From the UHGV virus genome UHGV-0236227: 30,354 nucleotides of DNA; one strand, 5' to 3'. The notes under the pieces were generated by a model. The model was not told where the DNA came from and did no database searches. It saw nothing but the letters and a program-made list of their open reading frames with translations. This document shows positions 6-29,945 of this stretch, piece by piece; position 1 is the stretch's first letter, and each line of letters opens with the position of its first letter. A program made the translations under genes and the position numbers. This DNA is from a virus.

Positions 6-470
6 TTATTTTCTCTCCATGTGAAATCTGTGGAAATTAAGACCAAGAGCACCATAAGGCGCGGCTTCTTCAAGCCTGAATCCAAGCCAGTGCAGCCATG
101 CTTTGGCAACATGGTTTCGCTCGTCGACATAGTTTTCCAGGCGCGGATAAACTGCCAGCATCTGCTGCAATACAGGGCGGCAGTGGCGAAGAAATGTCTT
201 CTGATATTTTTCGATACGGCTGGTTCCGACCAGCCAGGGCGTACCATTGCCACCGATCATTGACGCCGGAGATACGCCAAACATGGTTACCAGTTCTCCG
301 TTCGCAAATCCTGACCAGGCCATAGTCGCAGTACGCAGACCAACACGCAGCGCATCTTCGGTAGTCATCAGTGATACCGCATACAGTTCGTCAATATCAG
401 CCTGACGAACATCCGGCAAAATCATCTGAAGATGCTCTTCGGTTGCAGGAATAATTTGAACACCGATCAT
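6..470 (-). CDS. Virion protein, T7 gp13-like by position (internal virion protein candidate)
   Basis: 154-aa ORF; start shares one base with the stop of the upstream 823-aa gene (TGATG). Occupies the slot after gp11/gp12-like genes; T7 gp13 is of similar size. No motif recognised. Confidence 0.45.
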   Translation of the reverse strand: MIGVQIIPATEEHLQMILPDVRQADIDELYAVSLMTTEDALRVGLRTATMAWSGFANGELVTMFGVSPASMIGGNGTPWLVGTSRIEKYQKTFLRHCRPVLQQMLAVYPRLENYVDERNHVAKAWLHWLGFRLEEAAPYGALGLNFHRFHMERK

Positions 471-2941
471 CAGAATCCCCCAACAGTAAGGCGAGGAATA
501 ACGGCAAGAACAGACAGCGGCAACGGATCAAGCTGACGGATTTTTACACGTCCGTTTTTGCCCCAGTTACTGTCCAGTTTCACTTCTACTTTTCCGGTAG
601 CATCATCAACAGGATCATCGTAGAACTCGAATTCACGCTGTGGATATTCGTACCATTTACCGCCGGGCGTAGTCGCCCAGATGCCGCGACTGGCATTCAC
701 AACCAGAGTAACGGAGGGGATCACCTGTTTTTTGTCCAGCAGCGTTTCCTGTCCGTTAATGTTGATATCCAGTGTTTCGAATTCAGCAGTTATTGGCAGG
801 CCGATGTGCACTACAGCCCCCGGAGATTCCAGCGTGACGGCACCTCCGGAAACCACTTTCTGTGGTTCCACGTTCGCATCAGAGAGAATGTTTACGGTCT
901 GGCCTTCAAGATGAGACAGGCCTCCAAATGTCCGGCGCGCCATCTGCCAGTTCGTGGTGGCCACATTCCTGAGGGATGGCGGGACGTTCCTGTTAGCACG
1001 AACCACTACAGCGGTATTGCTGGTTACAGAAATAATGTCGCAACGTAATTCTTTTGACACCTCATCGCCAGTATCAGGATCAGTTCCGGTATAAGGGAAC
1101 TGTAGTTGCGCGCCGACATCACTACTGGTGAAGTACGCACCACCAGAAACACTGATTGTATATTCCGCGCGGTAATCCCATTCGCCAGAACCACCAGTGA
1201 TGGTCATCGTTCTGTCAGACGTATTTCTTCCATCATAGCTAAGGCCAGAATCAACAAAGAAAGCATCTTCATCGCTGGTAAATAAACGGCTGGACAGTCG
1301 CTCGATGTATCTCACTGTTTGCCCGTTAACGGTTCGGTTAATGACGAAATACACCGCATCTTCATTGCCTTCGCTGATACTGCATGTGCTTTCATATTTT
1401 CCGGTACTGGACTGTGGTGCCCATGCAAAAACCTGTTGATCACGCAAATAGGTCATCACCAGTAATTTACCGTCATCACGAATGCAGAAGGCGCTGGAGT
1501 AAGGGACAATAGAGAAGCACCAGTCAACAATGCTGTGCTTCTGAAAAAGATGATTGGCAAGGATAGTAAGGTCGTTCCCCTGATAGCCGTCAACATCGAA
1601 TGAGTAGGCCAGATCACGGACAACACTGCCTTTCTCCTGGACGAACAGAGCAATATTCGCCACGGCAATTGGTGGGACATTGCTCGAGCCATTTGATCCC
1701 TGAGAGCTGAATGCAAATGATGATGGGGTTAACACTTTGTTCTGGTCGCCGGTGATGACGTACTCACCTCCGGAAGTCAGCGCCACCAGAGAACCAACAT
1801 CAATCAGGTGGCGGATCTCATTAACCTGACGCCCGGCATAGGTGTAGATAATTCTGTCGTCATCCTGCGTAGGATTGCTTTTGCCAAAATCCTTATAATC
1901 CCCGGTACGGCTGGCCCAGATAGTCTGAGGGAACGCAGTCGATGCGGCGAAGTAAAGACGCTGTTGATAATAAACAACAGTGCCAGGATAACCATTAACA
2001 CTGTTCCAGGCATATTTAGCCCATTTATAGCTGGCATTATCCTCGCCAACGACCTGCGAAGGGATATAGGAAATCACCTCAGCAGTTGCAGTAGTGCCAT
2101 TTACAGCAGTTATACTGGCAATGCCAAAACCACTGTGCAGATACTCCCACTCAATGCCAGTATCATCATCACCGGATCCGCCCCAGCCATCCCATGATGT
2201 GCCTTCTGTATGCGAAGGGCGCAAAGTACCTGTTTTGCCTGCTGTAACGGCGCGATAGTAGTTACTGTCTGCACGGCGAATATCGCCAATCGACGTACTC
2301 TTACTGGTTTCCCATACCGGCACAGAATCCACTGCAGGCTGTTCCAGATAGAACAATTTGCCTACCTGCTCCGCGCCAAAAATAGAGGCGCTTGCCGTTA
2401 ACGTAATTGTCCCGGTGCTGGCGCTGGCATAAACCGTCACTGACTCGTCAATATTGATATCTTCAAATGGCCCGTTCTTCGTTACCACATCAACCAGTTG
2501 CCAGTTGTCATGCGCATAGCGACGCAACTCTTTCGGCGGGTATGCCGGATGAACCAGCGTAAGCACGTCGGCGCTTTGCGTGAATTTAATTCGGAACAGA
2601 TCGGCTTCAGTATATGGCGTGGCAATTTCATAAATAACATTGCTGCTGTTCAGCACCAACGCACCATCTTTGATAACGCGCATGTACTGGTGTCCGAACT
2701 CCAGAGCATAGGTCTGAACCGTCGAGAACTGGAACGGGATCAGGCGGCATTTCCGATTTGGGTATTTGGCGGCACCGACAAAACGCGTACCAGGTCGATT
2801 CTCAACGCCGCCATACTGCCGCACGATAAAGTTATCGCACTTGCGCAATGCCACCTGGTACTTCGCCATGTCAATACGCCCGTACAACGACGGTCCAATC
2901 TCACCACCGGCAAAGCTGGGCTGGATCCAACTGATAGCCAT
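470..2941 (-). CDS. Tail tubular protein B-like (T7 gp12-like)
   Basis: 823-aa ORF coupled to both neighbours; size and position match T7 gp12 (about 794 aa). Similarity is recalled, not computed. Confidence 0.55.
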   Translation of the reverse strand: MAISWIQPSFAGGEIGPSLYGRIDMAKYQVALRKCDNFIVRQYGGVENRPGTRFVGAAKYPNRKCRLIPFQFSTVQTYALEFGHQYMRVIKDGALVLNSSNVIYEIATPYTEADLFRIKFTQSADVLTLVHPAYPPKELRRYAHDNWQLVDVVTKNGPFEDINIDESVTVYASASTGTITLTASASIFGAEQVGKLFYLEQPAVDSVPVWETSKSTSIGDIRRADSNYYRAVTAGKTGTLRPSHTEGTSWDGWGGSGDDDTGIEWEYLHSGFGIASITAVNGTTATAEVISYIPSQVVGEDNASYKWAKYAWNSVNGYPGTVVYYQQRLYFAASTAFPQTIWASRTGDYKDFGKSNPTQDDDRIIYTYAGRQVNEIRHLIDVGSLVALTSGGEYVITGDQNKVLTPSSFAFSSQGSNGSSNVPPIAVANIALFVQEKGSVVRDLAYSFDVDGYQGNDLTILANHLFQKHSIVDWCFSIVPYSSAFCIRDDGKLLVMTYLRDQQVFAWAPQSSTGKYESTCSISEGNEDAVYFVINRTVNGQTVRYIERLSSRLFTSDEDAFFVDSGLSYDGRNTSDRTMTITGGSGEWDYRAEYTISVSGGAYFTSSDVGAQLQFPYTGTDPDTGDEVSKELRCDIISVTSNTAVVVRANRNVPPSLRNVATTNWQMARRTFGGLSHLEGQTVNILSDANVEPQKVVSGGAVTLESPGAVVHIGLPITAEFETLDININGQETLLDKKQVIPSVTLVVNASRGIWATTPGGKWYEYPQREFEFYDDPVDDATGKVEVKLDSNWGKNGRVKIRQLDPLPLSVLAVIPRLTVGGF

Positions 2942-3549
2942 CAGGACAACCTCGCAATGGTAAACTCATCAACCGGTGGCTGTGGTTCCTGTGATTCATT
3001 CTGGCTATGCGAGCCAGCACTAAGAATCACGCGATTGTACATATTGAGGGCAAACGTACCGAGGTCTGCATTCCCAGTCAGCGCCATGTTAATAGCTGCC
3101 GCAAGACGCCAGGCCAACGCCTCCATAAAAATGGCATCAAACATGTTCACATCTGAAACGCGAGAGACATACTTGAGCCATGCCTGCGGCTGGTCTGTGT
3201 AGATCAACTTTCCTGTTCCGTTGGTGTCTGCACCAACTTCGTACTGAACGCGCATTGCTGCTGTTGGATTGCGTACACCAGGAAGCATAATTTCAGTAAT
3301 GCGCAGACAATCGGACGGGTACTGGTACGCATATTCCCAGTCAGGCGGTGGATTGTTCGTATCTGCAAGCGCCACGCGTTTGGTAGCAAAGTTCCAGTCA
3401 AAATCAGAAAGCACAGCATCACGGCAGGCCTCAAAGTGCAGCGAACATTCCCCTGCTTCCTTGCTGGCTTCCGTCAGGCTGTTAATGCTGCGGCTGTTGC
3501 CAATATTGGACAGCGCACGATTACAGATCTCTACTACAGAGGCCATCAC
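2941..3549 (-). CDS. Tail tubular protein A-like (T7 gp11-like)
   Basis: 202-aa ORF; N-terminal segment (ALSNIGNSRSINSLTE) resembles the T7 gp11 N-terminus as recalled; size close to gp11 (196 aa); synteny with the gp12-like gene. Confidence 0.55.
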   Translation of the reverse strand: MMASVVEICNRALSNIGNSRSINSLTEASKEAGECSLHFEACRDAVLSDFDWNFATKRVALADTNNPPPDWEYAYQYPSDCLRITEIMLPGVRNPTAAMRVQYEVGADTNGTGKLIYTDQPQAWLKYVSRVSDVNMFDAIFMEALAWRLAAAINMALTGNADLGTFALNMYNRVILSAGSHSQNESQEPQPPVDEFTIARLS

Positions 3550-8715: not shown

Positions 8716-8744
8716 TTGACATTTAACGCACTAATTATTACCTT
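8716..8744 (+). promoter_or_regulatory. Candidate promoter (TTGACA -35) overlapping a TTACC-N5-GGTAA palindrome, pointing toward the tRNA
   Basis: TTGACA at 8716..8721; the -10 element is not clean (TAATTA/TACCTT candidates). Confidence 0.35.
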
Positions 8745-8752
8745 TCAGGTAA
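8738..8752. promoter_or_regulatory. TTACC-N5-GGTAA palindrome (putative operator)
   Basis: TTACCTTTCAGGTAA; identical 15-mer recurs at 29281..29295. Confidence 0.45.
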
Positions 8753-9074: not shown

Positions 9075-9151
9075 GTGGCATTAGCTCAGTTGGACAGAGC
9101 AACCGCCTTCTAAGCGGTTGGTCGCAGGTTCGAATCCTGCATGCCACGCCA
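9075..9151 (+). tRNA. tRNA-Arg (anticodon UCU), phage-encoded
   Basis: 77-nt cloverleaf folded by hand: 7-bp acceptor stem GTGGCAT/ATGCCAC, D-arm GCTC-AGTTGGACA-GAGC, anticodon stem ACCGC/GCGGT with loop CTTCTAA, T-arm GCAGG-TTCGAAT-CCTGC, encoded CCA end. Confidence 0.9.
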
Positions 9152-9710: not shown

Positions 9711-9722
9711 GTGACATGTCAC
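9711..9722. repeat. Perfect 12-bp palindrome GTGACATGTCAC (copy 1), preceded by ATAACACC
   Basis: Read directly; second copy at 12165..12176 with the same ATAACACC context. Confidence 0.6.
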
Positions 9723-9726
9723 AAAC

Positions 9727-9753
9727 AGCCAGCCTATGAGCTGGCTTTGTTTT
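9727..9753 (+). terminator. Intrinsic terminator after the 118-aa ORF
   Basis: AGCCAGC-N6-GCTGGCT hairpin followed by TTGTTTT. Confidence 0.55.
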
Positions 9754-9796: not shown

Positions 9797-11272
9797 TTAA
9801 GCATAGGGATCGTAATCTGTAATGGCCTTGCCTTGCTGGTTCTGCTGACCTGGAATTCGCAGACGCTTCGACACAGGGAAAGCAAACGTCAGCAATAGCG
9901 CATCGCCTTTACCCGGCGAACGCCCAAGACGCTCTTTGATATCTTCCTTCGGTTCGATAACGATTTTACCGTCCACACGAACTTTGTACTCTGCCGCCGA
10001 CAGGTCGTCTGCAGTTTCCTGGTCATCCAGCATGCCGCCCAGCCTCAGCCATGTCTTACATGAGTTGAACATCTCCCCACGCTTGTTAAGCATCTGCGGG
10101 TCAGTGGACGCACCGCCGAACGGAACAAGTTGCCATGTACGTCCCCAGCCATCACCGATTGACTTCAGACCGGTTCCGTAACCGAAGTCGATGAACACCG
10201 CGTCAGCCTGGTACTGGTCTTCAAAGTCAGCGATACGCTTCGCCATAATCAGATCGTCGGTGGTCTTGTTGCCGGTCCACAGCACCTTACTGTGCAGCCC
10301 CTGCCGCAGGTATATCACCGCGTCATCAACGCCTGAATATGCCGGGTCAACACCGATTATCACCGGAGCATGTGCAACCTGCGCAGCGGTTACCACCCGT
10401 TTCATTGCCTCGTCAGTAAGACCGGTAGGGATAAACTGCAATTCAGATGCATCAGGGAATATGCCACGCACACGGATTTTAACGAAGTCGCTATCTTCCC
10501 CGTAGTCATCAACCCATTTCTGCAACTGCTGTTTGTTGGTGCCTTCCACCGTCCTGCTGTCAATCTGCGCAGTTTTCCAGCGGTGTTTGTATTTGCGGAA
10601 ACATTCACGGAAACGCCCGGTGTTACGTGTAGGGTTTCCGAAAGCCACCCAGATAATCTCAGTGTCTTCGTCCGTTAGCGCACCCTCGGCAACTTCCCAC
10701 ACCAGATCCGCAATGTTCGACGCTTCATCAAATACCACGATGATGCGTTTACGCTCGTTGTGTAGTCCGGCGAATGCCTCAGTGTTGTGCTCAGACCAGG
10801 GGATTGCGTCAGCTCGCCACCGCTTGTCGTGCCCAGGGTCATTGCTGTACATCGCGGTAGCGGTACAGGTAAACCAGTCTTTCGTGATAGCAAGGTTTGA
10901 CCACTTGATAATTTCCGGCCAGGTCTTCGTTCGTAGCTGGTTGTCGGTGTTGGCGGTCACCACGACCTTACAATCCTCGCAAGTGGACATGCCCCAGTTG
11001 GTCAGCATTGAGATGAATGCGGATTTACCAATACCGTGACCAGAAGCACGTGCCAGCATAAGCGGCTGATATCGCGTCTCTGGATTCTGCAGGTGATCAC
11101 GTATCTCTCGGAACGCATCAGCCTGCCACTGACGTGGGCCGGTGGCATGTGCCAGTTCAGTCCCCTCTTCCCCCCATGGGAACGCATAGAGGGCATAGCC
11201 AAGCGGATCGTGAGTGAACCCTGCAATATCCTCGATTAACTGCTCTTCAGGAGATAACGCTGTATCTGTCAC
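9797..11272 (-). CDS. Terminase large subunit
   Basis: 491-aa ORF with Walker A-like ASGHGIGKS, Walker B-like IIVVFDEAS and a C-terminal acidic nuclease-like segment (VIIGVDPAYSG); ATGA coupling to the terS-like gene. Confidence 0.9.
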   Translation of the reverse strand: MTDTALSPEEQLIEDIAGFTHDPLGYALYAFPWGEEGTELAHATGPRQWQADAFREIRDHLQNPETRYQPLMLARASGHGIGKSAFISMLTNWGMSTCEDCKVVVTANTDNQLRTKTWPEIIKWSNLAITKDWFTCTATAMYSNDPGHDKRWRADAIPWSEHNTEAFAGLHNERKRIIVVFDEASNIADLVWEVAEGALTDEDTEIIWVAFGNPTRNTGRFRECFRKYKHRWKTAQIDSRTVEGTNKQQLQKWVDDYGEDSDFVKIRVRGIFPDASELQFIPTGLTDEAMKRVVTAAQVAHAPVIIGVDPAYSGVDDAVIYLRQGLHSKVLWTGNKTTDDLIMAKRIADFEDQYQADAVFIDFGYGTGLKSIGDGWGRTWQLVPFGGASTDPQMLNKRGEMFNSCKTWLRLGGMLDDQETADDLSAAEYKVRVDGKIVIEPKEDIKERLGRSPGKGDALLLTFAFPVSKRLRIPGQQNQQGKAITDYDPYA

Positions 11273-11868
11273 TGATTGCCATCCTGACGTTCTTTCAGTC
11301 TCTTCCTGGCTGCCGCTATGCGATCAGCAATTGTCACATTCACATTAACATCCAGGCGTTCTTTGAATGCGTTGACGTCGACGTGCTTACCAATCAGTTC
11401 GAGGTTCTTCACCTTGTCAGGCCATTTAATTTTTTTGAGGATGCCAACCAGCTCTTTCTCGTCTCCACGGCCTTCGAACATGTCGGCCAGTTCGAAACCT
11501 GTCAGGTACTGCCGCCAGACCTTAGGCCATTCCGAGACCGGCTTGATGCTCATATCGTCGTTGAGAATGTCAATCACGTCCATCTGGTCGATCTCCACCA
11601 GGCGCATGAGAACGTAATCAGCACTGACGCGCATTCGTTTGTTGCGCTCCTCCATCAACTCGGCAATCCGTTTTTGAATGCGTTCATCGCGCATCATGAC
11701 ACTGGCTTTAACTGCCGCTGTATTTGGGGAGAATCCTGCGTTAATCGCAGCCTGAGTCTGGTTTTCAGGCGTTTGGATGTATGACTGGCAATAAGCCTCC
11801 TGCATTGCTGTTAGTGGCTTAAATTGCGTTGATTTGCGTTTATAGGTTTTAGGTTCAGCAGGCATCAT
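11269..11868 (-). CDS. Terminase small subunit
   Basis: Directly upstream of and coupled to terL; conserved-looking core. Start uncertain: likely the internal ATG pair at 11868/11865 rather than the track start at 11946. Confidence 0.7.
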   Translation of the reverse strand: MMPAEPKTYKRKSTQFKPLTAMQEAYCQSYIQTPENQTQAAINAGFSPNTAAVKASVMMRDERIQKRIAELMEERNKRMRVSADYVLMRLVEIDQMDVIDILNDDMSIKPVSEWPKVWRQYLTGFELADMFEGRGDEKELVGILKKIKWPDKVKNLELIGKHVDVNAFKERLDVNVNVTIADRIAAARKRLKERQDGNQ

Positions 11869-11876
11869 AACCACCG

Positions 11877-11907
11877 TGGTAATAGTTACCGTTGTGGTAA
11901 TAGTACC
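11877..11907. repeat. Tandem copies of GTGGTAATAGT(T)ACC, each an inverted GGTAA...TTACC unit, just upstream of terS
   Basis: Two direct repeats 17 bp apart (11877..11890 and 11894..11907), between a terminator hairpin and the terS start codon. Confidence 0.45.
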
Positions 11908-11909
11908 AT

Positions 11910-11937
11910 GCAAAATAAAGCCGCCATAGTTGGCGGC
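11910..11937 (-). terminator. Intrinsic terminator upstream of the packaging and structural operon
   Basis: GCCGCCA-tagt-TGGCGGC hairpin followed on the minus strand by TTTATTTTG. Confidence 0.55.
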
Positions 11938-11942
11938 AGTAT

Positions 11943-12176
11943 TCAAAGTCCATCAAATTCATCGTAAAAACTCTCGTCAAGATACCCTTCCCATTTACCG
12001 CGAATGAAAATTACATCCTCGCCGCAAGGGTGCTGACTGTCGATAACTATATCCCTCCTGGCGCAACCATACTTATGCATGAGAAATTTAACCTCTTTCG
12101 GAAAATTTGCTGAGTTATCTCTCATATCTTCAAGGTCGTAGCGTATTTTTGGCATAACACCTTCGTGACATGTCAC
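11943..12176 (-). CDS. Hypothetical protein
   Basis: 77-aa ORF; start ambiguous (GTG at 12176 or ATG at 12155). Confidence 0.4.
   Translation of the reverse strand: MTCHEGVMPKIRYDLEDMRDNSANFPKEVKFLMHKYGCARRDIVIDSQHPCGEDVIFIRGKWEGYLDESFYDEFDGL
12165..12176. repeat. Perfect 12-bp palindrome GTGACATGTCAC (copy 2)
   Basis: Identical to 9711..9722, including the upstream ATAACACC. Confidence 0.6.
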
Positions 12177-12520
12177 ACTATTAATTTCGTTTCATGCCAG
12201 CCTTTAGTCACCCAGCATTGCGAGTCACCATTACACGGGCATGAATTAACGGGAACTCTCTCGCCGCACTTACCGCAAAGTTTTCTGCTGATCGATTTTA
12301 TACGCCCGCGCACACGTGCATCATCCTGGCGGATCAGCAGCGCGATGTACTCGGCCATTTCATAGGGATCGTGACCAGGGCGCCGGGCGGCGCAGTTCCG
12401 CGCCAGCATTTCCTGCTCCTGCTTATCCAGCACCAGTTCAATTTTGCGCTCACCAGCGGCGGACTGCCGAGCGCGCTGCGCGGCTTTGCGTTCTGCGGGG
12501 GATTTAGCCACGAATCGCAC
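12173..12520 (-). CDS. Cys-rich putative zinc-binding protein (candidate late-gene regulator or Lar-like protein)
   Basis: 115-aa ORF (GTG start in the track); basic N-terminus and C-terminal C-x2-C...C-x-C cluster (CGKCGERVPVNSCPCNGDSQC). Function is inferred from position upstream of terS. Confidence 0.45.
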   Translation of the reverse strand: MRFVAKSPAERKAAQRARQSAAGERKIELVLDKQEQEMLARNCAARRPGHDPYEMAEYIALLIRQDDARVRGRIKSISRKLCGKCGERVPVNSCPCNGDSQCWVTKGWHETKLIV

Positions 12521-12626
12521 TCCACGCCAGATTGATTAATGACTCCCAGGCAATATAAACCAGGATACCAGCAGCCAGGCCGAAACCAATCACCATGGCA
12601 TAAAGCAGAGCGTTGCGCTTGTTCAT
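12504..12626 (-). CDS. Small hydrophobic peptide (single predicted transmembrane helix)
   Basis: 40-aa ORF (MNKRNALLYAMVIGFGLAAGILVYIAWESLINLAWSAIRG) with a perfect AGGAGG Shine-Dalgarno 7 nt upstream; start overlaps the stop of the upstream gene (TAATG). Below the track's size cut-off. Confidence 0.4.
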   Translation of the reverse strand: MNKRNALLYAMVIGFGLAAGILVYIAWESLINLAWSAIRG

Positions 12627-13288
12627 TACTTCGCCTCCTGCGGCGGTTCCGGTAGCGGCATCCAGTGAGTTACGTCATCCAAGATATTTCCTGATAAATA
12701 CGTGAAAGCTCTATATTTTTTGTAATCAATTGGATTTACAACCCAGTTCCAATATGCGGCCACGATTTCACCTTGACTAAATGCCAGTAACATTTTGGTG
12801 TCTTCCGGCATTCGATCACTACAGCTTATCCAACCACCCGGAGTTACCGGAGAGTTGCCGCGTTCTTTAATGTGCAAGCGAGGCTCACCATCTTTTGGTT
12901 CAGGCCACTGGCGTTCCATGTTGATCTTCAATTTATTTTCCATAGCAGCGGTAATTTCAGCATCACTGATACCAGCACGGCGCTGTGCATCCCACAACAG
13001 AAACTGCATATCAGCCCACTCGCTAAGATCGTCTGGTTCGGCTGCGGCTTCCAGTGCCTCTTTTGAGAGATGTTTCAGCGGACCAATGGGGCCAACGCAG
13101 CCAAATGTGGAGTCAGACCATTTGGCATGCTCGTGGCGAATCTGTTCGCGTTCCAGTGAGGCGAGAGCGATTTTAAATGCTGTAAGCATGTGTGCTTGAT
13201 CGTTGTCGAGTCCGAATGGCATTTCATCTCGTGCTGACTCAATACTGGTAATCGTATTTTGTAGCCATTCTTTGGTAAAAGTGCTCAT
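12626..13288 (-). CDS. DUF550/DUF551-like phage protein (MazG-like pyrophosphohydrolase-type N-terminal domain, tentative)
   Basis: 220-aa ORF; recalled resemblance to DUF550 and DUF551 motifs (C-terminal THWMPLP). Confidence 0.55.
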   Translation of the reverse strand: MSTFTKEWLQNTITSIESARDEMPFGLDNDQAHMLTAFKIALASLEREQIRHEHAKWSDSTFGCVGPIGPLKHLSKEALEAAAEPDDLSEWADMQFLLWDAQRRAGISDAEITAAMENKLKINMERQWPEPKDGEPRLHIKERGNSPVTPGGWISCSDRMPEDTKMLLAFSQGEIVAAYWNWVVNPIDYKKYRAFTYLSGNILDDVTHWMPLPEPPQEAK

Positions 13289-15314: not shown

Positions 15315-15329
15315 TTACCCCTGAGGTAA
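15315..15329. promoter_or_regulatory. TTACC-N5-GGTAA palindrome (putative operator)
   Basis: TTACCCCTGAGGTAA; overlaps the RBS region of the downstream minus-strand gene. Confidence 0.45.
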
Positions 15330-15376: not shown

Positions 15377-15391
15377 TTACCCAACAGGTAA
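15377..15391. promoter_or_regulatory. TTACC-N5-GGTAA palindrome (putative operator)
   Basis: TTACCCAACAGGTAA in the P-like / DUF1064-like intergenic region. Confidence 0.45.
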
Positions 15392-17610: not shown

Positions 17611-17673
17611 TCACCCATAAGGTAACAAAAATCAAGGATAGTTACCTATGAGGTGCATTTACCTGTTGGGTAA
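17611..17673. promoter_or_regulatory. Tripartite operator cluster in the cro / repressor intergenic region
   Basis: Three palindromes: TCACC-N5-GGTAA (17611..17625), TTACC-N5-GGTGC (17642..17656), TTACC-N5-GGTAA (17659..17673); centre spacings 31 and 17 bp. Confidence 0.6.
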
Positions 17674-17728: not shown

Positions 17729-18313
17729 ATGAAAAGTATCCAGGACGTCCGCAGGCAAAATCTCAACGACTTGATCGACCGTGAATTCAATGGTGTTCAG
17801 ACGCGGATGGCAGAAAAACTTGGAACTCAGGCAAATCTGGTAAACCGCTGGGCTCTTGGCAAGAAGGTTATCGGCGACCAGGTTGCACGAAAAATTGAAG
17901 CTGCCGCCAATAAACCCCGTAACTGGCTTGATATTGATCGTTCGCTTTCTCAGGAGGGTTTTCAGCCTGTCGGCCCGAGCGATATAGGTCAGTTGGCGGC
18001 TCACAACCTGGAACGCTGGATGAGCGAAAGCCGCGACCTTTCAACACAGGGAAAACTTCACCGCGCATCCGGCGTCGCCCAGGTGACAATCAGCCGCCTG
18101 TTAAACAATGAGGTCAGCGTTTCCATTTCCACTCTGGAGAATGTTGCATCCGCATTCGGGCGTCACGGATATGAACTACTGATTCACCCGCACGACCCTG
18201 CGACTATCAACTATGACCGCTCACGCTACGCATTGTTACCCGAAACCGAGAAAGCAAAGATCGAAAGTTACATTGAATTTGTCATCAACCAGAACGAAAA
18301 AAGCAAACAATAA
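17729..18313 (+). CDS. CI-like repressor candidate with two HTH-like segments and no recognisable S24 peptidase domain
   Basis: 194-aa ORF divergent from Cro-like gene; two XRE-type HTH-like segments; no Ser-Lys peptidase motifs recognised. Confidence 0.55.
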   Translation: MKSIQDVRRQNLNDLIDREFNGVQTRMAEKLGTQANLVNRWALGKKVIGDQVARKIEAAANKPRNWLDIDRSLSQEGFQPVGPSDIGQLAAHNLERWMSESRDLSTQGKLHRASGVAQVTISRLLNNEVSVSISTLENVASAFGRHGYELLIHPHDPATINYDRSRYALLPETEKAKIESYIEFVINQNEKSKQ

Positions 18314-18370: not shown

Positions 18371-18447
18371 TTACCTTACGGGTAATTTTTTTAACTCATA
18401 TCTATTGACACTAAACCAAATAAGCATAATTATTACCTCAACGGTAA
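18371..18447 (+). promoter_or_regulatory. pL-like promoter region with two TTACC-N5-GGTAA palindromes flanking a TTGACA -35 element
   Basis: Sites at 18371..18385 and 18433..18447; TTGACA at 18405..18410; directly upstream of the recombination operon. Confidence 0.5.
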
Positions 18448-19826: not shown

Positions 19827-20849
19827 ATGTCTATCAATGCACTTAAGGCAGCGGCTACCGGTAACCAAGTTGCACATCATAATGAGAAACCAACAACTCT
19901 GGCCGGACTTCTGGCAGACCCAAAAATTAAAGCTCAGATGGCTTTGGCACTTCCAAAGCACATGACAGCAGACCGTCTGGCGCGCATAGCAACCACAGAG
20001 ATCAGAAAGGTTCCAAAACTTGCATCATGCGACCAAGCCAGCTTCCTGGGGGCAATTATGCAATGTGCCCAATTGGGTCTTGAACCAGGCGGAGCTCTTG
20101 GACACGCTTACCTGATACCGTTCGACAAACGCCAGAAAGTAAATGGAAGATGGGAAACCGTATCTACAGAAGCACAGCTGATTATCGGCTATCGCGGAAT
20201 GATTGACCTTGCCCGCCGCTCTGGGCAGATCCTGAGTATCTCGGCTCGTACCGTACATACAAACGACAAATTCAGCTACTCATACGGCCTGGAAGAAACG
20301 CTCGAGCATTTACCTTGCGAAACAGGTGACCGCGGAGAATTAACGCACGTTTACGCCGTTGCACGACTGAAAGATGGCGGAGTCCAATTTGAAGTTATGA
20401 GCCGGGCAGACGTTGAGAAAGTTCGTGCACTGAGCAAAGCCGGTAGCAGTGGCCCATGGGTTGATCACTTCGATGAGATGGCTAAAAAAACAGTAATTCG
20501 CCGACTGTTCAAATATCTTCCTGTTTCTATTGAAATGCAGAAGGCTGTTGTTATGGATGAGCGCGCTGAAGCTGGACTTAGCCAAGATAACGCAGCTGTT
20601 ATCACTGGTGAATATTCCGTAGTTGACGATGAGCGTCAACACCTGTCGCCAATTTCAGATTCAGAACGAGAAGAAGCTCGAGAATATATCATCGCGATAC
20701 TTAATAGCCTGGATCCATCTGCTGAAGATGCAAAAACGATGTTCAAGCGCGCTGAAAATGAAATTAACACCATGGCTGAAAAGCTCGGTGATGAATATCA
20801 CCAAAAATTCATGATGACGCTTAACGATATGCGTCCAGAATTCGAGTAA
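19827..20849 (+). CDS. recT: RecT-family single-strand annealing protein
   Basis: 340-aa ORF with AAGGAG Shine-Dalgarno; RecT-like core (GYRGMIDLARRSGQI); paired with the YqaJ exonuclease. Confidence 0.85.
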   Translation: MSINALKAAATGNQVAHHNEKPTTLAGLLADPKIKAQMALALPKHMTADRLARIATTEIRKVPKLASCDQASFLGAIMQCAQLGLEPGGALGHAYLIPFDKRQKVNGRWETVSTEAQLIIGYRGMIDLARRSGQILSISARTVHTNDKFSYSYGLEETLEHLPCETGDRGELTHVYAVARLKDGGVQFEVMSRADVEKVRALSKAGSSGPWVDHFDEMAKKTVIRRLFKYLPVSIEMQKAVVMDERAEAGLSQDNAAVITGEYSVVDDERQHLSPISDSEREEAREYIIAILNSLDPSAEDAKTMFKRAENEINTMAEKLGDEYHQKFMMTLNDMRPEFE

Positions 20850-20898: not shown

Positions 20899-21147
20899 AT
20901 GAAAGGTGCATTAGGTAAGAAAGAACTCCTGGCGGTGGTGCCACTGTCATGGAGCACTATCGACCGTATGGAGCGCGCAGGGGAATTTCCTAAACGCTGG
21001 TATATCACCGATAAACGCTGCGCATGGAACCGTGATGAAGTTGAGCGTTGGCTTGATGAACGTCAGGCAGCAAGCCCGGCAGAGTTCCAGGGTAAAAAGC
21101 CTCCTGTTCAGCAACGTGTATATCGTCCCGTGAGCAACGCTGCATGA
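20899..21147 (+). CDS. AlpA-family HTH protein (excisionase / transcriptional regulator candidate)
   Basis: 82-aa ORF with AlpA-like segment (LSWSTIDRMERAGEFPKRWYITDKRCAWNRDEVERW). Confidence 0.6.
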   Translation: MKGALGKKELLAVVPLSWSTIDRMERAGEFPKRWYITDKRCAWNRDEVERWLDERQAASPAEFQGKKPPVQQRVYRPVSNAA

Positions 21148-21256: not shown

Positions 21257-21556
21257 GTGAGAAAGTTAAGCCGACTTGAAAAATATCACATGAATAAGGT
21301 TTCAATGCGCAGTCCGTCAAAGATTGTCGCCGTTACTCCTGCGGCGATAGAGATCGAAAAACGCGCGATTGAAAGAGAGAAAAAAGGGCAATTCCGCATT
21401 GCCGCTCACCTTTGGCTTCAGTGTATGGATGTTGCTTCTGGTGATGTTGAACGTGCAAGGATCGCGGTTCGCAGGGACCAATGTATCACAAAAGGTAACG
21501 GCCTTCGCCGTGGCGACTATAGCGGCATAGGATGTTGTGGGGTGGTTTATGACTAA
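21257..21556 (+). CDS. Small regulatory protein (ANR-family-like, tentative)
   Basis: Up to 99 aa; start uncertain (GTG 21257 or ATG 21305); helical segment AAHLWLQCMDVA recalled as ANR-like. Confidence 0.35.
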   Translation: MRKLSRLEKYHMNKVSMRSPSKIVAVTPAAIEIEKRAIEREKKGQFRIAAHLWLQCMDVASGDVERARIAVRRDQCITKGNGLRRGDYSGIGCCGVVYD

Positions 21557-29280: not shown

Positions 29281-29295
29281 TTACCTTTCAGGTAA
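29281..29295. promoter_or_regulatory. TTACC-N5-GGTAA palindrome (putative operator) in the divergent tailspike / small-ORF region
   Basis: TTACCTTTCAGGTAA, identical to the site at 8738..8752. Confidence 0.45.
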
Positions 29296-29332: not shown

Positions 29333-29352
29333 TACTGTATAAATATACAGTT
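29333..29352. promoter_or_regulatory. LexA (SOS) box
   Basis: TACTGTATAAATATACAGTT, i.e. CTGT-N8-ACAG with AT-rich spacer; 21 bp upstream of the small-ORF ATG. Confidence 0.6.
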
Positions 29353-29372
29353 ATTGCATGGAGAAGATTAAG

Positions 29373-29630
29373 ATGCAGCAGTATCACTATCCACTGGAAG
29401 ACGGATTTACCGAAAGGATTCACACGCCGGGAGGCGTCAGGTCACTGGTGGAGGGATCGCACTTGATGAAATTACTCCGGGATCTCGATAAGGATGGATT
29501 TAATGTCGATGGCCCACTTGCCGAACTGACTGCACTGATTAACTACGTCACCAGCTCACAGATGTCTATGCAGGATCTGCAAACACATCTCGACTATTGT
29601 GCCGAACAATTACGAAAGCAAACCAGATAA
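29373..29630 (+). CDS. LexA-controlled small protein (Tum-like antirepressor candidate)
   Basis: 85 aa from ATG 29373 with GGAG Shine-Dalgarno at 9 nt (track start 29358 lies inside the promoter region); LexA box immediately upstream. Confidence 0.5.
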   Translation: MQQYHYPLEDGFTERIHTPGGVRSLVEGSHLMKLLRDLDKDGFNVDGPLAELTALINYVTSSQMSMQDLQTHLDYCAEQLRKQTR

Positions 29631-29661: not shown

Positions 29662-29676
29662 TTACCTTTGCGGTAA
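29662..29676. promoter_or_regulatory. TTACC-N5-GGTAA palindrome (putative operator)
   Basis: TTACCTTTGCGGTAA, 32 bp after the small-ORF stop. Confidence 0.45.
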
Positions 29677-29711: not shown

Positions 29712-29789
29712 GGCACTGGCAAAATCCAGTGCCGGGATTGGCGTCCCGGGTTACTAAGTGGCGCATACCACGCCAGACGTGGTTTTTTT
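29712..29789 (+). terminator. Structured RNA region: two GC hairpins, then an intrinsic terminator (29768..29789)
   Basis: GGCACTGG-N6-CCAGTGCC (29712..29733), CCGGGA-N6-TCCCGG (29732..29749), CCACG-N5-CGTGG plus 7 T (29768..29789). Confidence 0.5.
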
Positions 29790-29945
29790 ATGCGTTAAGC
29801 ACAGCTATATCCGAATTATGGTGGGCTGGGCAGGGGTCCGAAAGGACGCCGGTACCACTTAGGCCGGTACGCCAACCTTGTCCAGTTCACCACCAGTAAT
29901 TGGCGTTGCGGTGGTGATTAAAATCACTAAGTGGAGATAACCACC

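Follow-up and report, generated by a model that had tools for sequence, protein, structure and literature searches.

In the phage group of ε15 and SPC32H, prophage induction has been summarised as a route leading from LexA through the antirepressor Ant to the repressor (PMC7380047), and the repressor, Rep, is a tetramer which binds palindromic sites (PMC9638917, PMC9986798). The ε15 record AY150271.2 carries seven 'protein_bind: repressor' features of the form ATTACC-N5-GGTAAT, which are predictions of the depositors, and one of them (12..27) precedes terS (47..643) and follows a terminator at 39646..39672. Phage P1 is comparable to the prophage described here in that one repressor, C1, has operators scattered round the genome and keeps many operons silent; the dispersed P1 operators are asymmetric 17-mers, and the P1 late promoters need the activator Lpa and carry no operators. 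Unlike P1, the packaging, portal and tailspike regions of the present prophage each have a Rep-type operator.

The window, by which we mean the whole stretch of 30,354 nucleotides that was analysed (UHGV-0236227), is a Uetakevirus (ε15/phiV10-like) prophage, and the region is also found in 502 of 5426 complete E. coli genomes (~9%). We propose that the segment 11937..11865 on the minus strand is where the early-right operon meets the packaging (terS-terL) operon. All control elements of the terS region lie on the minus strand, and the features in this part of the window are as follows.

11269..11865, minus strand: terS, 198 aa from the second ATG, Terminase_2 (Pfam PF03592, E 3.7e-29)
11870..11875, minus strand: Shine-Dalgarno-like GGTGGT of terS, read from the sequence, its positions 93-100% conserved
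11868..11882, no strand: O2, one-mismatch operator TTACCACGGTGGTTA, a possible auxiliary site covering the terS Shine-Dalgarno (SD) sequence
11886..11900, no strand: O1, predicted exact Rep-type operator, TTACCACAACGGTAA on the gene strand, at about -7 to +8 of the inferred promoter
11900..11908, minus strand: predicted extended -10 element TGgTACTAT, with TG at 11908-11907 and the hexamer TACTAT at 11905..11900
11912..11937, minus strand: intrinsic terminator (stem, loop and T-tract) at the end of the early-right operon
11943..12176, minus strand: 77-aa ORF, phrog_1541, probably 70 aa from the ATG at 12155 judging from homologues
12173..12520, minus strand: protein X, 115 aa (112 aa in homologues), phrog_536, basic and Cys-rich

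The exact 11-mer GTGGTAATAGT is found twice, at 11876-11886 and, offset by 18 nt, at 11894-11904, which confirms the two direct repeats that a preliminary description of this DNA had placed before terS. On the gene strand the repeats can be extended as 14/15-mers, GGTACTATTACCAC (11907..11894) and GGTAACTATTACCAC (11890..11876), and the proximal one stops short of the first ATG (11868) by 7 nt and of the second (11865) by 10 nt, not 9 nt as had been given. The second ATG is likely the start codon, because the relative L055 has ATT where the first ATG stands and because ε15 has a single ATG at an equal distance from the SD. Each copy had been read as a GGTAA...TTACC unit, and the repeats are indeed built from operator half-sites, but the register was wrong: by sequence comparison, the conserved unit is a single TTACC-N5-GGTAA beside the extended -10 element and not a GGTAA-N3-TTACC palindrome. 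The Rep operator palindrome, (A)TTACC-N5-GGTAA(T), is present exactly in O1, which bridges the junction of the two 11-mer repeats, and with one mismatch in O2, whose last base is the A of the first ATG and whose conserved bases double as the SD; the centres of O1 and O2 are 18 bp apart, and neighbouring operators are 17 bp apart in the immunity regions of ε15 and SPC32N. The results showed nine exact copies of TTACC-N5-GGTAA in the window in comparison to 0.18 expected, all of them intergenic, while the shuffled sequences (n = 100) never held more than one copy. The terS-proximal repeats are thus most likely a binding site for the prophage's own Rep on the promoter of the packaging genes, a reading drawn from sequence comparison.

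The sequence TGgTACTAT at 11908..11900 resembles the sigma-70 extended -10 consensus TGnTATAAT, and transcription from it would start near 11893. Upstream conservation was counted over the 30 distinct upstream sequences from 89 loci, and T-8, G-7, T-5, A-4, T-2, A-1 and T0 were invariant or present in 29 of the 30, while positions -6 and -3 varied freely, a pattern characteristic of TGnTAnnAT. The -10 element and TTACC share one base, the last T of the former being the first T of the latter, and the same overlap recurs at three other operator-bearing sites, namely early-left (TTGACA-17-AATTAT|TACC), DUF1064 (TTGATT-17-TTTAAT|TACC) and 29662 (TTGCAA-17-TATTAT|TACC). No good -35 match was found for the predicted terS promoter, which was not called by the generic promoter scan and ranked only third in the region in the weight-matrix scan, suggesting that the promoter could be weak or need a helper.

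Directly upstream lies the only terminator, and none was found between the promoter-like element and terS. Its stem GCCGCCA/TGGCGGC (11937..11920) encloses the loop ACTA and is followed by the T-tract TTTATTTT at 11919..11912; with a 7-bp stem containing six G-C pairs, a 4-nt loop and TTTATTTT, it has the form of a Rho-independent terminator, and the minus-strand terminator described earlier at 11910..11937 was essentially right (11937..11912). The terminator is kept in the E. coli, Salmonella, Enterobacter and Serratia clades, is altered from G-C to G-U in L006, and is missing from the Klebsiella-type loci L075, L076 and L078. The 77-aa and 115-aa ORFs reported upstream exist as described. 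An Rfam scan of 11000..13000 returned no match. The 77-aa ORF is an accessory insert outside the conserved control region: in many related E. coli loci only a short 3' piece of it is left, and Salmonella-type loci (ε15 and its relatives) lack it, the downstream control region being unchanged.

A terS of 70% or higher identity to that of the window was present in 89 loci, and all 89 carry an exact O1 within 150 nt upstream of terS, with the ten half-site bases invariant and four of the five spacer positions variable. TGnTAnnAT beside one exact operator was found in the same 89 of 89 loci and in three more distant ones. The alignment of the region upstream of terS, which had been suggested as a check, thus bore out O1 and the extended -10 element, but the upstream 'GGTAC' half on which the earlier reading relied varies (GTTAC, GATAC, GTTAG) while TG-n-TAnTAT stays constant. 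O1 also precedes terS in relatives from Klebsiella, Enterobacter and Serratia. The Klebsiella-type loci, which have a different upstream gene and no terminator, kept the extended -10 element, as did a Serratia prophage with one operator only and the SD inside that operator. O2 is partly conserved, with one mismatch in ε15 (TTACTTCGGTGGTAA), one in Tyrion and two in SPC32N, and is missing from the Klebsiella and Serratia types. The invariance partly reflects shared ancestry, since many of the loci compared are close relatives.

The remaining elements of the proposed Rep-Ant-LexA switch, and the other operators in the window, are listed below.

8738..8752, no strand: Rep-type operator upstream of the gp3/portal operon
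15315..15329 and 15377..15391, no strand: operator pair, 62 bp apart, before the DUF1064 gene
17659..17673, no strand: operator between rep and the divergent early-right operon
17729..18313, plus strand: Rep, the prophage repressor proposed for O1 and O2 (PDB 5D50_A over its full length, E 3.5e-42)
18371..18385 and 18433..18447, no strand: operator pair, 62 bp apart, at the early-left promoter TTGACA-17-AATTAT
29281..29295, no strand: operator between the divergent tailspike and ant genes
29335..29350: LexA box CTGTATAAATATACAG, preceding ant
29358..29630, plus strand: Ant antirepressor homologue (PDB 5D50_E over its full length, E 4.4e-47), 88% identical to SPC32N Ant
29662..29676, no strand: operator abutting the promoter-like TTGCAA-17-TATTAT, upstream of the isrK and C4 RNA genes

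A Rep homologue is thus encoded in the same element as the operators, and its NLVNRW helix is conserved relative to the SPC32H repressor. The nine intergenic sites occupy positions common to relatives, and a one-mismatch operator is also located at 17611, near the site between rep and the early-right operon. Orthologous sites were found in ε15, SPC32N, Tyrion, two Klebsiella phages and three prophage loci; in ε15 the portal-operon site corresponds to 2931..2947, an annotated repressor site, the tailspike/ant site to 19895..19911, and O1 to the feature at 12..27. Exact sites numbered 9-11 in each of five complete genomes with Rep and 6-7 in each of three partial prophage loci (~16-20 kb), always with one before terS, in comparison to zero TTACC-N5-GGTAA sites in three lambdoid phages which have a TerS 56% identical, a Q antiterminator and no Rep. 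Each of the 36 phage records in which a Rep homologue was found comes from the same phage group, the Uetakevirus relatives already compared, so that no Rep operators before an unrelated terS were found. Rep homologues with altered recognition helices (NLVSRW, NLISRW; 54-59% identity) still use TTACC/GGTAA, and since every Rep homologue found, down to 43% identity, has the identical half-site, a test of specificity by covariation has no power.

The window therefore matches the ε15/SPC32H system in the same 15-17-bp palindrome, (A)TTACC-N5-GGTAA(T), between terminator and terS, in homologous Rep and Ant proteins, in the LexA box before ant, in the same operator-bearing intergenic regions and in the order of the elements at terS. 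It differs in that the E. coli clade has a second site, with one mismatch, placed so as to mimic direct repeats, and in the extra 77-aa gene between X and the terminator. In the literature searched, which included the ZX5 and Kapi1 papers, no experimental statement on the terS-proximal site was found.

We consider it very probable that Rep directly represses a sigma-70 terS promoter and that the terminator insulates this promoter from the early operon. Under this model, early-right transcription would end at the terminator, directly after which comes the predicted extended -10 promoter (TGgTACTAT), sharing one base with the 15-bp O1, while the weaker O2 lies 18 bp further on, over the ribosome-binding site of terS. 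In a lysogen, Rep would sit on O1, and probably on O2 too, occluding the -10/start region so that the terminase genes stay silent, and read-through from upstream genes would be blocked by the terminator; because Rep is tetrameric in SPC32H, one tetramer could occupy both O1 and O2. Upon SOS induction, cleavage of LexA would allow Ant to be made and Rep to be removed, and the terS promoter would then fire together with the other promoters presumed to be under Rep control, i.e., early-left, early-right, DUF1064, portal and tailspike. The conserved operator and extended -10 element support the earlier suggestion that this stretch controls the late (packaging) operon.

The mechanisms put forward earlier for such control fared less well. 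One of them, that the repeats form a pac-like recognition site for TerS at which packaging starts, as at pacL/pacR of SPP1 and SF6, is very improbable. In SPP1-type phages, pac is located at the start of the terS gene. The present locus is similar to the pacL-pacC-pacR arrangement in having repeats at the 5' end of terS and a TerS of a related fold family (Terminase_2, matching the SF6 small terminase, PDB 3ZQP, E 8e-7), and several GenBank records of the phage group open close to this point upstream of terS, but the record starts follow gene boundaries (after the last gene or terminator), indicating conventions rather than mapped ends. A pac site should furthermore be unique, whereas each genome has 9-11 copies of TTACC-N5-GGTAA at promoter-like sites between genes, and the motif tracks the repressor and not TerS, being found wherever Rep is present and absent upstream of the 56%-identical terS in the three Rep-less phages. 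It is possible that a pac site lies elsewhere in or near terS; the literature search on packaging ends gave nothing usable, and the PDB sequence search with TerL gave no match. It also seems unlikely that late expression needs a phage factor, with X as the candidate, for read-through of the terminator or for activation of a promoter lacking a -35. Such a role would fit with X being basic, Cys-rich and putatively nucleic-acid-binding, with its position as the last conserved early-right gene, like that of lambda Q, with the lack of a -35 in the terS promoter, and with a conserved palindrome at the X stop codon. As in the lambda Q/qut/tR' region, a small and possibly nucleic-acid-binding gene ends the early-right operon before a terminator and the late genes; however, X has no similarity to Q, the terminator here precedes the promoter-like element, and no constitutive promoter with a terminator between it and the late genes, as in lambda, was seen, which argues against antitermination. 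Searches of Pfam, NCBIfam and PDB with the X sequence were empty, with only a non-significant DUF6532 match and nothing of the Q family in Pfam/NCBIfam even at E ≤ 10, and phrog_536 was the sole match among Pfam, NCBIfam, PHROG and PDB, libraries which possibly do not include a Lar model. Activation of the Ogr/Delta type (an Ogr_Delta Cys4 zinc finger of ~70-90 aa) is likewise disfavoured, X matching no Pfam or NCBIfam family and no PDB chain. The AlphaFold model of X, built from 28 close homologues, had a pLDDT of 65.5, and the best Foldseek match against PDB was at E = 1, with only faint resemblances to ribbon-helix-helix antitoxins; we thus make no claim on its fold. An analogy between X and Ogr of P2-like phages was considered and rejected, as a P2-like Yersinia phage has an X homologue and, separately, a 72-aa regulator gene at the canonical Ogr position. 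In N15-like phages the X homologue is located in mid-operon with no terminator after it, the distance between the palindrome and the promoter varies (about 74, 92 and 285 nt by our own counts), and in locus L077 the 3' end of X and the palindrome are missing, yet the control region is kept. The placement of Rep operators directly on late promoters rather suggests that these promoters are active on their own.

Control at the RNA level, in which transcripts crossing the terminator would form a long imperfect hairpin (about 11911..11858) that sequesters the terS SD and start codon, is highly unlikely as well. The predicted fold of 11965..11855 does consist of the terminator and a second hairpin with the alternating half-sites paired across the SD and ATG, at -36.9 kcal/mol (z = -5.9 against shuffles), but any tandem palindromic operators would fold alike, so this structure adds no evidence of its own. 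Pairing with the upstream arm (the GGTAC region) is not conserved, the 5' arm would be missing from a transcript that begins near 11893, and the Klebsiella and Serratia relatives have no second repeat. That the repeat is a functionless product of chance or of recent local duplication is scarcely conceivable: an exact 11-mer repeat within 30 nt is by itself only mildly improbable (~0.2 expected per window, an estimate), but prophages of E. coli, Salmonella, Enterobacter, Klebsiella and Serratia strictly conserve O1 and the extended -10 element, and the genome as a whole is enriched in the motif.

Apart from direct repression by Rep, an observation was made on X itself. A perfect 12-bp palindrome, GTGACATGTCAC, at 12165..12176 encloses the TGA stop codon of X, and the palindrome GTGACnnGTCAC accompanies X homologues in four unrelated phage lineages, i.e., Uetakevirus, N15-like, P2-like Yersinia and Vibrio phages. 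A second copy is located as follows.

9711..9722, no strand: second copy of GTGACATGTCAC, between the convergent terL and a 118-aa ORF, 4 nt from a bidirectional terminator hairpin (9727..9746)

In Uetakevirus further copies are found at junctions of stop codon and terminator on either side of terS-terL and where the structural operon ends, and in ε15 and SPC32N the copy at the X stop lies 22-24 nt before the terminator. A literature search for the 12-mer GTGACATGTCAC gave no match. For GTGACnnGTCAC only, an analogy may be drawn with lambda nutR (cro stop, nut, tR1), as both have a short inverted repeat at or just after a stop codon and GTGACnnGTCAC, too, often stands directly before an intrinsic terminator. 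In contrast to the boxB RNA of lambda, the stem sequence of GTGACnnGTCAC is conserved while its centre varies, suggesting a double-stranded DNA site for a dimer, and unlike nutR the GTGACnnGTCAC sites are also found at convergent junctions. It is possible, though on the doubtful side, that X is a sequence-specific nucleic-acid-binding factor for GTGACnnGTCAC which sets transcription across operon boundaries; given the copies at the ends of operons, X could tune boundary crossing by roadblock, termination or antitermination.

In general, the analysis removes a false lead, in that the terS repeats appear to be a further operator of the known Rep/Ant/LexA switch and not a new late or packaging signal. 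The operator-before-terS arrangement is already annotated in ε15, and the finding is real but ordinary. It does sharpen a picture only implicit in the annotations, namely that in this phage group a repressor operator is present in each of the packaging, portal and tailspike regions; no dedicated late regulator was identified, and the proposed promoter architecture lends itself to a simple reporter assay. What was seen of X and its palindrome may outweigh the original finding, since it gives the widespread but uncharacterised protein family phrog_536 a likely recognition sequence, so that its function becomes directly testable; if the suggestion is true, X would affect read-through from the early operon into terS too and would form a second, undescribed layer of late control above Rep.

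The window falls among the ε15/phiV10-type podophages of the genus Uetakevirus, with phiV10, TL-2011b, ZX5, phiv142-3, ε15, SPN1S/SPC32H and Tyrion matched in DNA and protein searches, and its genes from 1 to about 17000 are carried on the minus strand. The 221-bp core of the region upstream of terS was found in 502 of 5426 complete E. coli genomes. A tRNA gene (9075..9148, plus strand) lies in the variable stretch between terL and the portal operon, and a tRNA-Arg occupies the corresponding position in SPC32N.

Features at terS
9797..11272, minus strand, terL
11269..11865/11868, minus strand, terS, SF6/SPP1-family TerS
11937..11920 (stem) and 11919..11912 (T-tract), minus strand, intrinsic terminator from the terminator scan, RNA fold as expected

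The preliminary description had placed a terminator, two direct repeat copies and two ORFs of 77 and 115 aa before terS, and all were borne out: the scan and the fold agreed on the stem 11937..11920, two exact copies of the 11-mer GTGGTAATAGT are spaced at 18 nt, and both ORFs are present. Only the distance of 9 nt from the repeats to terS was a small slip, since the first of two adjacent ATGs is 7 nt away and the second 10 nt away. Of these, the second (11865) is most likely the terS start, because its Shine-Dalgarno (SD) spacing matches that in ε15 and the first ATG reads ATT in one related locus (L055). On the gene strand the order is GCCGCCAACTATGGCGGC TTTATTTT GCA TG G TACTAT TACCACAACGGTAA CTA TTACCACGGTGGTTA TGATG.

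The motif TTACC-N5-GGTAA was found in nine copies in the window in comparison to 0.18 expected, with a spacer of invariably 5 nt, and one-mismatch copies include 11868..11882 (O2).

Exact TTACC-N5-GGTAA sites in the window, all between ORFs
8738, 11886, 15315, 15377, 17659, 18371, 18433, 29281, 29662

The exact operator at 11886..11900 (O1) straddles the junction of the two repeat copies, and the half-sites alternate as GGTAc - cta - TTACC - acaac - GGTAA - cta - TTACC - acggt - GGTtA, so that copy 1 consists of the -10 region and the left half of O1, while in copy 2 a 3-nt linker joins the right half of O1 to the left half of O2. The repeats are thus made of operator half-sites as previously described, but their grouping into palindromes with 2-3-nt spacers (GGTA-N-TACC) does not hold, since elsewhere in the genome the spacer is 5 nt. 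Two operator pairs, 15315/15377 on either side of the DUF1064 promoter and 18371/18433 on either side of the early-left promoter, are separated by 62 bp centre-to-centre, a spacing kept in every genome examined (L002, which is ε15, L085, which is SPC32N, L086, L087, L088, L096 and L097), with 63 bp in two Klebsiella cases; this spacing of about six helical turns fits one tetramer, or a higher oligomer, of the prophage repressor homologue (Rep) bridging both sites.

Conservation was assessed in 80 IMG/VR loci, eight phage records and three prophage contigs. The exact operator lies within 150 nt upstream of terS in all 89 loci whose terS is at least 70% identical. In an alignment anchored on the operator, comprising 30 distinct sequences, the ten half-site bases are invariant in all 30 and spacer positions 5, 6, 7 and 9 are variable. 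Directly upstream of the operator, no sequence departs from T-8, G-7, T-5, A-1 and T0, and 29 of the 30 keep A-4 and T-2, while positions -6 (G/T/A) and -3 (C/T/G) vary. As judged from this alignment, the conserved pattern TGnTAnnAT is an extended -10 whose final T doubles as the first base of the operator, with the variants TGGTACTAT, TGTTACTAT, TGATACTAT, TGGTATTAT, TGTTAGTAT and TGGTAGTAT; the GGTAC of the preliminary description is therefore not conserved as a half-site. Klebsiella-type loci have another upstream gene and no terminator, yet retain TGGTATTAT-TACC...GGTAA. A Serratia prophage (Rep 54% identical) carries the terminator, TGTTATGAT, one base, TTACCAAGGAGGTAA, five bases and ATG; its only operator includes the SD, and a second copy is absent. 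Conservation of O2 is partial: it departs from the motif at one position in the E. coli, ε15 and Tyrion types and at two in SPC32N, and was not recognisable in the Klebsiella or Serratia relatives in this comparison. The conserved unit is, by these alignments, one operator adjoining an extended -10, and the tandem appearance is a clade-level detail.

The weight-matrix scan showed the same overlap of -10 and operator at three further operators of the window, which supports reading TACTAT (11905..11900) as a -10.

Other predicted promoters whose -10 runs into TACC
18433, early-left promoter, TTGACA-17-AATTAT
15315, minus strand, TTGATT-17-TTTAAT, before the DUF1064 gene, where the operator again reaches the SD
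29662, TTGCAA-17-TATTAT

If TACTAT is the -10, terS transcription would start near 11893, which would put O1 at about -7 to +8 and O2 at about +12 to +26, each a position suited to repression. Unlike the three other promoter-like sites with an operator, the predicted terS promoter is without a usable -35 in the scan; the TG motif presumably compensates, which is the weakest link in the model. The early-left operon also encodes a 99-aa PerC-family protein (21257..21556, plus strand; PF06069, E 6e-7; phrog_868 'transcriptional activator'), adjoined by an AlpA-like gene (20899..21147).

Rep (194 aa, 17729..18313) matches the SPC32H repressor over its full length (PDB 5D50_A, E 3.5e-42). In secondary sources Rep is described as a tetramer in which pairs of N-terminal domains bind palindromic sites, with a looping-type tetramerisation domain (PMC9638917, PMC9986798), and the repressor as being inactivated by a LexA-controlled antirepressor, leading to induction (PMC7380047). 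The antirepressor homologue Ant (90 aa, 29358..29630) shares 88% identity with SPC32 Ant and has a match in 5D50_E, and a canonical LexA box, CTGTATAAATATACAG (29335..29350), directly upstream is the expected SOS input to the switch. Directly downstream of the operator and promoter-like element at 29662, isrK Hfq-binding RNA (29713..29789, plus strand) and C4 antisense RNA (29814..29897, plus strand) were matched at Rfam gathering scores; this stretch looks like a second antirepressor control module of the P1 immI or Gifsy isrK kind, continuing past the window end.

The 77-aa ORF (phrog_1541) is an insertion/deletion polymorphism (L004, L023, L077, the last also lacking the 3' end of the gene for the 115-aa protein X). 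Many related E. coli loci retain no more than a 3' remnant of about its last eight codons, and it is absent from the Salmonella-type loci (ε15 and relatives), the control region being unchanged in both; by this comparison it is dispensable. X (phrog_536) bears the PHROG label 'transcriptional regulator', with no evident experimental basis, and its 571 database relatives are all 'hypothetical protein'. X had no Pfam, NCBIfam or PDB match and its low-confidence structure model gave no significant structural neighbour; on these tests it is neither a Q nor an Ogr/Delta protein. In SPC32N (38396..38632) and SPN1S a shorter and different N-terminus of the X homologue (MATTTTRRQNL...) replaces the basic AERKAAQRARQ segment, which is thus not strictly required, since these phages are viable.

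A perfect palindrome, GTGACATGTCAC (12165..12176), encloses the TGA stop of X, and a second copy (9711..9722) is located 4 nt from a bidirectional terminator, in the gap that separates terL from a convergent ORF. By base count, GTGACnnGTCAC is expected about 0.04 times per 40 kb. One to four copies are present in every Uetakevirus genome or locus, and the 80 loci contain 135 sites in comparison to 1.3 expected, at conserved positions (at the stop codon of X, directly behind terL, and where the structural operon ends).

Copies of GTGACnnGTCAC elsewhere
ε15: 2142, 19517, 39612
L092: 5288
L093: 4499, 7214
L099: 4246
also in L101-L208

The same palindrome accompanies X homologues of 34-42% identity (N15-like, P2-like Yersinia and Vibrio phage K308 relatives), enclosing the stop codon in 39 of 40 N15-like and 52 of 56 Yersinia-type loci, the exceptions having a truncated X or being only distant relatives, and lying about 240 nt downstream in the Vibrio type. 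The half-sites are constant, while lineages differ in the two bases at the centre (AT, TG, GC and others) and the last sense codon of X varies (Val, Ala, Leu) but always ends in G. No copy was found in three phages without X. Additional copies are found where operons end, frequently right beside terminators, and 11 of 23 sites in eight genomes or loci were within 35 nt of a terminator-like hairpin. The 12-mer was not found in the searchable literature. The simplest reading of these patterns is that X would recognise the palindrome as a dimer on DNA. The distance from palindrome to terS promoter is variable, and in one locus the palindrome is missing with the downstream part unchanged; the pairing is a possible novel case, kept apart from the main explanation, that slightly raises the interest of the finding.

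The repeats had also been proposed as a TerS recognition (pac-like) site, and with a TerS of the SF6/SPP1 family a pac site close to terS would be generally plausible; however, a pac signal is expected to be unique per genome, whereas the operator motif is multi-copy and follows Rep rather than TerS. In each of five complete genomes with Rep (43-78% identical) there are 9 to 11 exact sites, one of them before terS, while no copy was found anywhere in EcoM-683R1, Morganella IME1369_01 and phiES15, lambdoid phages with a TerS about 56% identical and a Q antiterminator but without Rep, and the repeats are thus not a good candidate for a pac site. The ε15 record AY150271.2 already lists repressor sites: its seven features labelled 'protein_bind, repressor, lysogeny' have the extracted sequence ATTACC-N5-GGTAAT, one of them (12..27) directly before terS (47..643), and since the record ends with a terminator (39646..39672), the circular-map order of terminator, repressor site and terS is the same as in the window. 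The observation upstream of terS is real, and the finding itself is known biology because the orthologous site is annotated there. The earlier proposal of late-operon control stands only in the broad sense of late control from operator half-sites, the mechanisms put forward for it not being supported; most likely the prophage repressor directly represses the terS promoter, downstream of an insulating terminator.
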